From assembly GCF_003334315.1 (NCBI RefSeq), contig NZ_QOWR01000074.1: a DNA stretch of 16,712 bases; one strand, given 5' to 3'. This document shows, piece after piece, positions 11,300 to 16,712 of the stretch. How positions within the stretch are numbered: position 1 is the stretch's first letter; each line of letters opens with the position of its first letter. A model generated the notes under the pieces. It was not told where the DNA came from. It worked only from the letters and a program-made list of their open reading frames with translations, and ran no database searches. The position numbers and the translations under genes were made by a program. Origin of the DNA: Escherichia coli. Its GTDB lineage: Bacteria > Pseudomonadota > Gammaproteobacteria > Enterobacterales > Enterobacteriaceae.

Positions 11300-11485
<186 letters not shown>

Positions 11486-11493
11486 ACCAGGCT

Positions 11494-12252
11494 TTACTTA
11501 ATCCCATCCGCGCTCATGCGATCGCGAATATGCTGGGCGCGTTCGGCGGATGCAGGATGGTCGTCAAACATTGAGCTTTGGCGACCTTCTTCCAGTTTTG
11601 CCAGTTTTTCAAAGCTGGTGGCAAGACCTGCCGGGCTGATGCCGCGTTGGCGCAGAAGATCGTAAGAATAATCATCGGCTTCTGCTTCCTGGCGCTGGGA
11701 GAATTGCGAATTGACTAATTTCTCGCCCAGATTACCAAGTTGTGATTGAGATAAACTTCCGACAATCCCGCCCGCAGAGGCCGCAGCTACTCGCACGGCA
11801 TTTGTACCAAGTGCCACCTGCATTCCTTTTTTCACATGGCCTAACGCCACGTGCCCCATTTCGTGACCGATCACCGCTTCGACTTCGTTATCCGTCATCA
11901 TATCCATCAGCCCGCTATAGACACGGATACAGCCGTTAGCCATTGCAAAGGCGTTCACATCCTTCGCCATATACACTTTGTAATTTACCGGCTGACCGTT
12001 GATATTGTTGCCTAGCGCATTGGCAATAGTTGTCAGACGTTTAGCGTATTCGCTATTGGCTGGCGCAATCGTCGCCTTGCTGTCCATCTCCTGACATGCC
12101 TGATCGCTCAGGGCTTTCACCTGCGCATCACTCAAACTGTAAGCCTGAAAAGCTTCCGCTCCTGATGAGAGCAGTCCGTTGGAGTCCATATTCTGGCAAC
12201 CGGTCAGTACCGTTGCCACGCTCATTGCTACCAATAAGGCGCGAATTTTCAT
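11494..12252 (-). CDS. loiP: Outer-membrane M48-family zinc metalloprotease LoiP (YggG), 252 aa
   Basis: The ORF contains MKIRALLVAMSVATVLTGCQ (lipoprotein signal) and a HEMGH zinc motif. Start trimmed from the 325-codon track ORF to the ATG at 12250-12252. Confidence 0.88.
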   Translation of the reverse strand: MKIRALLVAMSVATVLTGCQNMDSNGLLSSGAEAFQAYSLSDAQVKALSDQACQEMDSKATIAPANSEYAKRLTTIANALGNNINGQPVNYKVYMAKDVNAFAMANGCIRVYSGLMDMMTDNEVEAVIGHEMGHVALGHVKKGMQVALGTNAVRVAAASAGGIVGSLSQSQLGNLGEKLVNSQFSQRQEAEADDYSYDLLRQRGISPAGLATSFEKLAKLEEGRQSSMFDDHPASAERAQHIRDRMSADGIK

Positions 12253-12529
12253 GTTTTCTCTTCCGCACAAGGTCAGGATTATTCTAAAAATGCGCCGTTT
12301 GCAGGTGAATCGACGCTCAGTCTCAGTATAAGGAAAAGCGCAGCGGACGGGCGAGTAGATTGCGCAACATGCGAGCATGATCCAGAGATTTCTGAAGCGG
12401 CAAAAGGATGTTCCATGTACATGACGCGCGGCTTGCGGTAAATTGTTGGCAAATTTTCCGGCGTAGCCCAAAACGCGCTGTCGTCAAGTCGTTAAGGGCG
12501 TGCCCTTCATCATCCGATCTGGAGTCAAA

Positions 12530-14521
12530 ATGTCCTCACGTAAAGAGCTTGCCAATGCTATTCGTGCGCTGAGCATGGACGCAGTACAGAAAGCCAAATC
12601 CGGTCACCCGGGTGCCCCTATGGGTATGGCTGACATTGCCGAAGTCCTGTGGCGTGATTTCCTGAAACACAACCCGCAGAATCCGTCCTGGGCTGACCGT
12701 GACCGCTTCGTGCTGTCCAACGGCCACGGCTCCATGCTGATCTACAGCCTGCTGCACCTCACCGGTTACGATCTGCCGATGGAAGAACTGAAAAACTTCC
12801 GTCAGCTGCACTCTAAAACTCCGGGTCACCCGGAAGTGGGTTACACCGCTGGTGTGGAAACCACCACCGGTCCGCTGGGTCAGGGTATTGCCAACGCAGT
12901 CGGTATGGCGATTGCAGAAAAAACGCTGGCGGCGCAGTTTAACCGTCCGGGCCACGACATTGTCGACCACTACACCTACGCCTTCATGGGCGACGGCTGC
13001 ATGATGGAAGGCATCTCCCACGAAGTTTGCTCTCTGGCGGGTACGCTGAAGCTGGGTAAACTGATTGCATTCTACGATGACAACGGTATTTCTATCGATG
13101 GTCACGTTGAAGGCTGGTTCACCGACGACACCGCAATGCGTTTCGAAGCTTACGGCTGGCACGTTATTCGCGACATCGACGGTCATGACGCGGCATCTAT
13201 CAAACGCGCAGTAGAAGAAGCGCGCGCAGTGACTGACAAACCTTCCCTGCTGATGTGCAAAACCATCATCGGTTTCGGTTCCCCGAACAAAGCCGGTACC
13301 CACGACTCCCACGGTGCGCCGCTGGGCGACGCTGAAATTGCCCTGACCCGCGAACAACTGGGCTGGAAATATGCGCCGTTCGAAATCCCGTCTGAAATCT
13401 ATGCTCAGTGGGATGCGAAAGAAGCAGGCCAGGCGAAAGAATCCGCATGGAACGAGAAATTCGCTGCTTACGCGAAAGCTTATCCGCAGGAAGCCGCTGA
13501 ATTTACCCGCCGTATGAAAGGCGAAATGCCGTCTGACTTCGACGCTAAAGCGAAAGAGTTCATCGCTAAACTGCAGGCTAATCCGGCGAAAATCGCCAGC
13601 CGTAAAGCGTCTCAGAATGCTATCGAAGCGTTCGGTCCGCTGTTGCCGGAATTCCTCGGCGGTTCTGCTGACCTGGCGCCGTCTAACCTGACCCTGTGGT
13701 CTGGTTCTAAAGCAATCAACGAAGATGCTGCGGGTAACTACATCCACTACGGTGTTCGCGAGTTCGGTATGACCGCGATTGCTAACGGTATCTCCCTGCA
13801 CGGTGGCTTCCTGCCGTACACCTCCACCTTCCTGATGTTCGTGGAATACGCACGTAACGCCGTACGTATGGCTGCGCTGATGAAACAGCGTCAGGTGATG
13901 GTTTACACCCACGACTCCATCGGTCTGGGCGAAGACGGCCCGACTCACCAGCCGGTTGAGCAGGTCGCTTCTCTGCGCGTAACCCCGAACATGTCTACAT
14001 GGCGTCCGTGTGACCAGGTTGAATCCGCGGTCGCGTGGAAATACGGTGTTGAGCGTCAGGACGGCCCGACCGCACTGATCCTCTCCCGTCAGAACCTGGC
14101 GCAGCAGGAACGAACTGAAGAGCAACTGGCAAACATCGCGCGCGGTGGTTATGTGCTGAAAGACTGCGCCGGTCAGCCGGAACTGATTTTCATCGCTACC
14201 GGTTCAGAAGTTGAACTGGCTGTTGCTGCCTACGAAAAACTGACTGCCGAAGGCGTGAAAGCGCGCGTGGTGTCCATGCCGTCTACCGACGCATTTGACA
14301 AGCAGGATGCTGCTTACCGTGAATCCGTACTGCCGAAAGCGGTTACTGCACGCGTTGCTGTAGAAGCGGGTATTGCTGACTACTGGTACAAGTATGTTGG
14401 CCTGAACGGTGCTATCGTCGGTATGACCACCTTCGGTGAATCTGCTCCGGCAGAGCTGCTGTTTGAAGAGTTCGGCTTCACTGTTGATAACGTTGTTGCG
14501 AAAGCAAAAGAACTGCTGTAA
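12530..14521 (+). CDS. tktA: Transketolase 1, 663 aa
   Basis: Translation [41 protein letters not shown]... Start at the ATG at 12530, preceded by a ggag Shine-Dalgarno at 12521-12524. The track ORF begins at an upstream GTG. Confidence 0.97.
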
Positions 14522-14535
14522 TTAGCATTTCGGGT

Positions 14536-14566
14536 AAAAAGGTCGCTTCGGCGACCTTTTTTATTA
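14536..14566 (+). terminator. Intrinsic terminator of tktA
   Basis: Stem aggtcgc (14540-14546) / gcgacct (14551-14557) with loop ttcg, followed by ttttttatt. An A-run precedes it, so it could function bidirectionally. It lies 15 bp after the tktA stop. Confidence 0.8.
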
Positions 14567-14834
14567 CCTTGATATGTCCGTTTGCGGACAAGCAATAGAT
14601 AAGGCGTGTTGTAGATCACAAATATTTATATGCAATAAATATCAATTATGTAATATGCATCACGATATGCGTATTGACATTTGTTGTTATATCTATAACT
14701 CAATGTTATATAAGAAATTAATAATTCACTGTTTTCAAAACACCGGTTTCCCTGCTCAATTGCTTTCATTAAACCGCACGAGTATTTTATTTTTACCGCC
14801 GGACGGTACCCTAAAAATAAAATAAGGATAATTT

Positions 14835-15251
14835 ATGCGGCTTAGTGATTATTTTCCAGAATCATCAATCTCAGTTATACATTCAGCAAAAGATTGGCAG
14901 GAAGCTATCGATTTCTCGATGGTATCATTGCTGGATAAAAACTATATCAGCGAGAATTACATTCAGGCAATTAAAGATTCCACCATTAACAATGGCCCTT
15001 ATTATATTCTCGCACCAGGCGTGGCAATGCCTCATGCGCGACCGGAATGTGGGGCGCTTAAAACCGGGATGTCTTTGACATTACTTGAACAAGGTGTTTA
15101 TTTTCCGGGGAATGACGAACCAATTAAATTACTCATCGGACTCTCTGCTGCCGATGCCGATTCGCACATTGGCGCTATTCAGGCGTTAAGTGAATTACTG
15201 TGCGAAGAAGAAATACTCGAACAACTCTTAACAGCATCATCAGAAAAATAA
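14835..15251 (+). CDS. cmtB: Cryptic mannitol-specific PTS EIIA component, 138 codons here; likely C-terminally truncated by a nonsense codon
   Basis: Translation MRLSDYFPESSISVIHSAKDWQEAIDFSMVSLLDKNYISENYIQAIKDSTINNGPYYILAPGVAMPHARPE... is a PTS EIIA(Mtl/Fru)-type domain. The frame stays open for 8 more codons (LADIISRG) beyond the TAA at 15249-15251. Confidence 0.85.
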   Translation: MRLSDYFPESSISVIHSAKDWQEAIDFSMVSLLDKNYISENYIQAIKDSTINNGPYYILAPGVAMPHARPECGALKTGMSLTLLEQGVYFPGNDEPIKLLIGLSAADADSHIGAIQALSELLCEEEILEQLLTASSEK

Positions 15252-15305
15252 TTAGCGGACATTATCAGCCGCGGATAATTACTCTCTCCTCTACAGGATA
15301 ATATT

Positions 15306-16508
15306 ATGGAAAACAAGTCTGCTCGTGCAAAGGTCCAGGCTTTTGGGGGCTTTTTGACTGCAATGGTCATCCCCAATATTGGTGCTTTTATTGCCTGGGG
15401 TTTTATTACTGCGTTATTTATTCCCACCGGTTGGCTGCCTAACGAACATTTCGCCAAAATTGTCGGCCCGATGATTACCTATTTATTGCCCGTGATGATT
15501 GGTTCTACAGGTGGTCATCTGGTCGGCGGTAAACGCGGGGCGGTCATGGGCGGAATAGGTACTATTGGTGTGATCGTTGGCGCAGAGATCCCGATGTTCC
15601 TTGGCTCAATGATCATGGGGCCGCTCGGTGGGTTGGTCATAAAATATGTCGATAAGGCACTGGAAAAACGCATACCTGCCGGTTTTGAGATGGTTATCAA
15701 TAACTTCTCATTAGGTATCGCGGGGATGCTCCTTTGTCTGCTGGGTTTTGAAGTTATCGGCCCGGCGGTGTTAATTGCCAATACTTTCGTCAAAGAGTGT
15801 ATTGAGGCGCTGGTACATGCGGGTTATCTGCCATTGTTGTCAGTCATCAATGAACCGGCGAAAGTGCTTTTCCTCAATAATGCGATCGATCAGGGCGTCT
15901 ATTATCCGCTGGGAATGCAACAGGCTTCGGTTAACGGTAAATCCATCTTCTTTATGGTGGCCTCTAACCCAGGTCCGGGCCTGGGGCTGCTGCTGGCGTT
16001 TACCTTGTTTGGTAAAGGGATGAGTAAACGTTCTGCGCCCGGGGCGATGATTATTCACTTCCTCGGTGGGATCCACGAACTGTATTTCCCGTATGTGCTG
16101 ATGAAGCCGCTGACCATTATTGCCATGATTGCGGGCGGTATGTCTGGCACCTGGATGTTTAACTTACTGGACGGTGGTCTGGTGGCTGGCCCAAGTCCGG
16201 GGTCTATCTTTGCTTACCTGGCACTGACGCCGAAAGGCTCGTTCCTGGCGACAATTGCCGGTGTTACGGTAGGTACCCTGGTGTCCTTTGCTATTACTTC
16301 GCTGATACTGAAGATGGAAAAAACGGTGGAAACGGAGAACGAAGATGAGTTTGCTCAGTCAGCCAATGCGGTTAAGGCGATGAAACAAGAGGGTGCATTC
16401 TCGTTAAGCAGGGTTAAGCGTATCGCCTTTGTTTGCGATGCGGGGATGGGCTCCAGTGCGATGGGCGCGACCACCTTCCGTAAACGCCTGGAAAAAGCGG
16501 GGCTGGCA
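15306..16508 (+). pseudogene. cmtA: Cryptic mannitol-specific PTS EIICB component, truncated at codon 401 by IS1 insertion
   Basis: Translation MENKSARAKVQAFGGFLTAMVIPNIGAFIAWGF... is an EIIC membrane domain followed by the start of EIIB (FVCDAGMGSS). The frame runs into the IS1 IRL at 16509 and ends after 8 IS1-encoded codons (GDAANLLI) at 16535. Confidence 0.85.
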
Positions 16509-16712
16509 GGTGATGCTGCCAACTTACTGATTTAGTGTATGATGGTGTTTTTGAGGTGCTCCAGTGGCTTCTGTTTCTATCAGCTGTCCCTCCTGTTCAG
16601 CTACTGACGGGGTGGTGCGTAACGGCAAAAGCACCGCCGGACATCAGCGCTATCTCTGCTCTCACTGCCGTAAAACATGGCAACTGCAGTTCACTTACAC
16701 CGCTTCTCAACC
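16509..16712 (+). mobile_element. IS1 insertion sequence, partial (23-bp IRL at 16509-16531 plus 5' part of insA); continues beyond window end
   Basis: ggtgatgctgccaacttactgatttagtgtatgatggtg... matches the canonical IS1 left end as I recall it. It is the reverse complement of 1-204. Confidence 0.95.
16564..16712 (+). CDS. insA: IS1 InsA, 5' fragment running off the window
   Basis: The GTG at 16564 translates to [49 protein letters not shown]. Confidence 0.88.

Follow-up and report, generated by a model that had tools for sequence, protein, structure and literature searches.

The chromosomal segment examined here raises the question of whether a shortened gene next to a disrupted one records the decay of a whole operon. 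The window, i.e. the complete stretch of 16,712 nucleotides of Escherichia coli DNA that was analysed (assembly GCF_003334315.1, contig NZ_QOWR01000074.1), carries the so-called cryptic operon cmtBA, in which the reading frame of cmtB stops earlier than expected and cmtA runs into an insertion sequence. A sequence-only reading of this DNA had taken the cmtB stop for a probable nonsense mutation at codon 139 of a gene expected to be 147 codons long, and had seen in the two lesions together the mutational decay of the entire operon. We therefore asked whether the stop is truly a mutation, how old and how widespread it is, what it would do to the protein and to the gene downstream, and whether it has anything to do with the insertion in cmtA.

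The gene order tkt - cmtB - cmtA is present in the window as in annotated K-12 and other regions. The short cmtB allele occupies positions 14835-15251 on the forward strand and, in the list of open reading frames of the window, consists of 138 codons followed by an ochre stop at 15249-15251. Beyond this stop the same frame stays open for TTA GCG GAC ATT ATC AGC CGC GGA (LADIISRG) before it meets another TAA at 15276-15278, and a sense reading of codon 139 would make the gene 147 codons long. Eight open codons after any stop have a chance expectation of (61/64)^8 = 0.68, so that the open frame on its own is uninformative and it is homology that makes it significant. Between the start codons of cmtB and cmtA, a distance of 471 nt, the only difference between K-12 and the window is a C to T change at 15249 (nt 415 of cmtB), which converts CAA (Gln139) into TAA. 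The 27 nt 3' of the early stop (15252-15278, forward strand) are an untranslated remnant of cmtB, identical and in the same frame to K-12 codons 140-147 plus the ancestral TAA. K-12 CmtB (b2934; PDB 2OQ3), the EIIA of a 'cryptic' mannitol-family phosphotransferase system (PTS), is identical to the window product at all 138 translated residues, is encoded at the same place between tkt and cmtA, and has the same PTS_EIIA_2 domain; unlike it, the window CmtB lacks residues 139-147.

The direction of the change is established by the state of codon 139 elsewhere. In a table of single nucleotide polymorphisms over the collinear speA-cmtA segment, position 15249 is C in K-12, BL21 (T7Express), ATCC 8739, LR-48, O157:H7 and the B2 strain O25b:H4, and T in the window, 510016, B379, 2024CK-00616, PEC414 and HS30-1, while GN04979, a more divergent strain, also has CAA at codon 139; the ancestral codon had been guessed as CAA or GAA, and CAA was found in K-12 and the other genomes compared. 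The expected length was likewise borne out, with the cmtB of K-12-derived MC4100 annotated as 444 nt (147 codons) and residues 1-147 covered by the CmtB structure 2OQ3. CmtB orthologues were mostly exactly 147 aa long, with a few of 145-146, among the matches listed in the protein search, which came from E. albertii, Citrobacter, Enterobacter, Kluyvera, Atlantibacter, Klebsiella, Yokenella, Scandinavium, Serratia and Raoultella. In 28 aligned orthologues Q139, L140, D142 and I143 are invariant (Gln139 in 28/28) and A141 is nearly so, and the tail QLADII(S/A)R(G/A) is kept across about ten enterobacterial genera. On these sequence comparisons the TAA at codon 139 is a derived nonsense change, because CAA/Gln139 and the length of 147 residues are kept both in diverse E. 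coli and in the orthologues. A natural family end at residue 138 was considered and is ruled out by the same matches, mostly of 147 aa, and by the invariant Gln139. Orthologues with the same TAA, which had been named beforehand as grounds for giving up the mutation, do exist and make up about 6.5% of E. coli, but the TAA in them is itself derived and is not the normal stop of the family. Hence what RefSeq presents as an ordinary protein under WP_001239647.1 is in fact a conserved 147-residue EIIA cut short by a derived nonsense change.

The allele is by no means confined to the window. An exact 57-mer with the TAA at its centre occurs in 350 of the 5,426 complete E. coli genomes and the corresponding CAA 57-mer in 4,285, and the exact 138-aa protein was recovered from at least 1000 contigs, one source naming it MULTISPECIES [Enterobacteriaceae]. 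The protein of the window is identical to WP_001239647.1, which RefSeq annotates as an ordinary CDS with no pseudogene flag (in 510016, HS30-1, B379, PEC414, 2024CK-00616, 98227 and others), and strain 510016 has identical DNA over the 471 nt. Among the carriers sampled the TAA was found only on a K-12-like haplotype, and the CAA in phylogroup-diverse genomes; the carrier lineage is thus defined solely by the K-12-like haplotype of the tkt-cmtBA region. The window differs from five of six sampled carriers by 1-4 SNPs (3.7-7.3 kb compared) and from 510016 at 29 sites, the visible ones mostly in speA, with only 2 lying between tkt and cmtA nt 1203; from K-12 it differs at 5 sites in the compared segment, the C/T at 15249 among them.

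A single origin of the TAA is the most economical reading of these sequences, drawn from six carriers and a short region of low diversity; recombination could have been an alternative route by which the allele spread. A C to T transition changing codon 139 of cmtB from CAA to TAA would have occurred once on the K-12-like tkt-cmtBA haplotype, the allele would then have been inherited by a sizeable lineage, and the window would have it by descent. That one such change was inherited by the lineage, and that the IS1 insertion in cmtA came later as a separate event, we regard as very probable. The cmtB stop is accordingly an inherited polymorphism, already catalogued and common to a lineage, and is neither private nor recent. 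The result carries little weight beyond a correction of annotation and a possible use of the C/T at cmtB nt 415 as a simple lineage marker within K-12-like E. coli.

Another short form of the protein was encountered in the same searches. It is a CmtB variant of 135 aa (cluster P0033, 538 member sequences). Its first ~17 residues (MIIFQNHQSQLYIQQKI) correspond to the 5' end of cmtB read in the +1 frame and are joined to normal CmtB sequence starting at about residue 30, which suggests that a further lesion of cmtB, an independent frameshift, may be in circulation.

As to the protein, the profile PF00359 (PTS_EIIA_2) matches full-length K-12 CmtB over residues 6-146 (E = 2e-29). The window CmtB equals the K-12 protein over residues 1-138, and the cmtB gene of a contig assembled from SRR1122540 also contains PF00359. 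The window translation retains His67 (in the motif AMPHARPE) and His111, neither of which varies in the orthologue alignments; we take His67 to be the phospho-acceptor and His111 to be the second conserved histidine, a catalytic role known from EIIA-Mtl. CmtB is a protein by itself, and in MtlA the EIIA makes up the fused C-terminal domain. The EIIA-Mtl of MtlA (PDB 1A3A, 1J6T, 2FEW) is a distant paralogue of CmtB (E = 3e-10) within the same fold family, and the alignment spans CmtB residues 17-144, including the C-terminal helix. An AlphaFold model made from the 28 orthologues (mean pLDDT 91.2) places this last helix at residues 137-145. The stop at codon 139 takes off the last nine residues (QLADIISRG) and with them nearly the whole helix, and the window therefore encodes an incomplete EIIA domain, its reading frame ending at 138 and the Pfam match running to 146. 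On the terminal amphipathic helix L140, I143 and I144 form a hydrophobic i, i+3, i+4 face, which suggests that in the modelled protein the helix packs on the core, and we infer that its loss would destabilise or weaken the EIIA domain. The product would be CmtB(1-138), with His67 and His111 kept and most of the C-terminal helix missing. The truncated protein may still work, since the allele lasts in hundreds of genomes that have an intact cmtA, no further lesions in cmtB and no pseudogene flag.

With the TAA allele, the distance from the cmtB stop to the cmtA ATG grows from 27 nt to 54 nt. A Shine-Dalgarno-like motif AGGA, of putative function and read from the sequence, is found at 15295-15298 on the forward strand, 7 nt upstream of the cmtA ATG, and suggests that cmtA may be translated from its own signal, independently of coupling to cmtB. 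No terminator-like site was found between cmtB and cmtA, and promoter-like matches at the site numbered 3 against 2.8 expected, i.e. the level of chance; the making or loss of a terminator or promoter by the C to T change was therefore rejected. Given the AGGA motif, the modest shift of the stop from 27 to 54 nt and the lack of a terminator-like site, we infer that the cmtB stop would have no polar effect on cmtA.

The damage to cmtA is of a different kind. The 5' part of the gene extends over 15306-16508 on the forward strand (codons 1-401, as aligned to K-12 and 510016), and homology to cmtA ends after 16508, at cmtA nt 1203, where the IS1 terminal repeat (GGTGATGCTGCC) takes over from 16509. 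The sequence at 16509 (GGTGATGCTGCCAACTTACTGAT) is the terminal inverted repeat of IS1, after which insA begins, and directly abuts the interrupted gene; matches to this IS1 end fall under annotated transposases of the IS1A/IS1B family. The IS1 end fills positions 16509-16712 on the forward strand and adds GDAANLLI* to the CmtA frame. In K-12 CmtA the Pfam domains are EIIC at residues 20-277 and PTS_IIB at 372-454, so the cut protein keeps the full EIIC and the first 30 of the 83 IIB residues. The independent Logan assembly of SRR1122540 matches the window exactly over 11380-16535, the TAA and the IS1 junction included, and the truncation of cmtA by IS1, which had been read from the window, is thereby reproduced. 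The window ends 204 nt into IS1 and the SRR1122540 contig 27 nt into it.

We also observed that window positions 1-204 match IS1 1-204 in reverse complement and that 16509-16712 correspond to IS1 1-204, a single site, IS1 position 8, distinguishing the two (A vs C). The IS1 sequence breaks off at the same position at either end of the window, which therefore has the look of a whole short-read contig that ended in IS1 repeats, and the piece between is a 16.3-kb chromosomal segment flanked by two IS1 copies whose insA-proximal ends both face inward.

This insertion appears to belong to a small clone. A G to A change at window position 16339, giving S345N in CmtA, is absent from the other nine genomes covering the site and is also present in the SRR1122540 contig, and on that account it is a sequence marker of a small clone with this cmtA::IS1 insertion. 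SRR1122540 and four other samples were the only ones to contain the exact 409-aa CmtA-IS1 fusion reading frame with S345N, and the IS1-cmtA junction of the window was met in none of the complete E. coli genomes. In seven of those genomes an IS1 end lies at most a few hundred nt from cmtA nt 1144-1203, but the spacing takes several values, and a junction shared with any of them was accordingly rejected. The element has entered the same gene elsewhere at other sites: at nt ~393 in HS30-1 (extracted region 3295-5459), which has the TAA allele of cmtB, and at nt ~1230 in LR-48 (extracted region 2974-5139), which has full-length cmtB, compared with nt 1203 here. As the insertions lie at different sites in strains with either form of cmtB, IS1 hits on cmtA are recurrent and independent of the cmtB allele; the recurrence could mean a hotspot for IS1 or a gene that is frequently dispensable. 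Later than the cmtB stop and separately from it, IS1 would have inserted after codon 401 of cmtA in the small source clone and destroyed the IIB domain. It is clearly this insertion, and not the cmtB stop, that inactivates the permease in the clone.

Several other explanations of the cmtB stop have to be set against a single inherited transition. An error of sequencing or assembly in contig NZ_QOWR01000074.1 might be suspected for a one-base change inside an A-rich run (GAAAAATAATT) of a draft contig that resembles short-read output, but the change is a substitution and not an error of homopolymer length, and the same base stands in the 350 complete genomes, which come from many laboratories and platforms, and in the independent assembly of SRR1122540; these last two observations rule out error as the source of the TAA, and we give it practically no credence. 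Hardly more credible is the notion that the stop is suppressed or read through, for example by an ochre-suppressing tRNA-Gln, so that full-length CmtB is still made. The 27 nt downstream are intact and in frame, and by our own reasoning a suppressor inserting glutamine would restore the exact wild-type sequence; yet 27 intact nucleotides are expected by chance in a young lineage, and the stop is followed by T. The context TAAT, reportedly the most efficient for termination in E. coli (Poole, Brown and Tate 1995), makes read-through unlikely. A more serious contender, though in our judgement a doubtful one, is that CmtB(1-138) is a functional and effectively neutral short isoform, and the allele a harmless length polymorphism. 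In its favour are the persistence of the allele in at least 350 complete genomes and at least 1000 contigs, the intact cmtA, yggP, glpX, fumE and yggC of carriers, the retention of both histidines and of 133 of the 141 Pfam-matched residues (6-146), and the annotation as a normal CDS in RefSeq. It is weakened by the nature of what was lost, namely four residues (Q139, L140, D142 and I143) that are invariant in the 28 orthologues and among the most conserved of the family, on a confidently modelled terminal helix with its hydrophobic face, and by the youth of the carrier lineage (at most 5 SNPs per 7.3 kb), which makes persistence weakly informative on selection.

The remaining readings concern the operon as a whole. 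A coordinated decay, with the cmtB stop and cmtA::IS1 as successive steps under relaxed selection on a useless cryptic operon, would agree with the damage to both genes in this clone; the recurrence of IS1 in cmtA in several E. coli genomes would also fit dispensability in some niches, and the 135-aa variant is a possible second lesion of cmtB in circulation. This we nevertheless think improbable. Carriers of WP_001239647.1 mostly have an intact cmtA, unlike the window with its IS1 after codon 401 and its S345N: the gene has its full 462 codons in all six of the evenly spaced TAA carriers sampled (510016, 98227, GENOMIC23-001, B379, 2024CK-00616 and PEC414) and is intact in 6/7 of the TAA carriers examined, the exception being HS30-1 with its IS1. 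Conversely, cmtA of LR-48 is interrupted by IS1 and its cmtB is full-length. Genes downstream were also intact in the four TAA carriers examined with wider flanks, the block cmtB-cmtA-yggP-glpX-fumE was collinear in every genome examined, and cmtB was found in 5,401 of the 5,426 complete E. coli genomes. Between K-12 and B2-type strains (window 12500-16508 vs O25b:H4 and GN04979) dN/dS was 0.16-0.19 for cmtB and 0.03-0.04 for cmtA, values that show clear purifying selection on both genes across E. coli phylogroups, despite the name "cryptic", and the operon is conserved in related genera as well. CRP activates the cmtB promoter (PMC3105977), and growth of EHEC in bovine digestive contents induces cmtB (PMC6199705); what targeted searches of the literature on cmtBA returned was limited to CRP regulation and expression data, and neither the substrate of the operon nor the Q139* allele was the subject of any paper found. 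Much less likely still is that Q139* was selected in the K-12-like (phylogroup A-type) lineage, for instance through altered EIIA cross-talk with PTS partners or regulators, and that the recurrence of IS1 in cmtA reflects selection against the transporter in certain hosts. We thus return to two separate lesions: the operon is maintained in the species, and this clone has lost it to a stop that is older and inherited and to an insertion that is recent. Of the decay of the whole operon that had been proposed, the damage to both genes in this clone stands, but the lesions are separate and the operon is kept species-wide. The locus offers a caution that two nearby lesions need not be one decay process, the stop here being an older lineage-wide allele and the IS1 insertion a recent event in one clone.

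Comparison of the neighbouring loci yielded a few further differences in gene content. In B2-type strains (O25b:H4, extracted region 4329-5237; GN04979, 1216-2124) tkt and cmtB are separated by a prohibitin-family gene on the opposite strand, which both K-12-like genomes and the window lack. In O157:H7 TT12A an additional lipoprotein gene separates speA from speB (extracted region 281-1012), and in T7Express, a BL21 derivative, speA is annotated as partial and adjoins an ISVsa5-type IS4 transposase (extracted region 1-1010).
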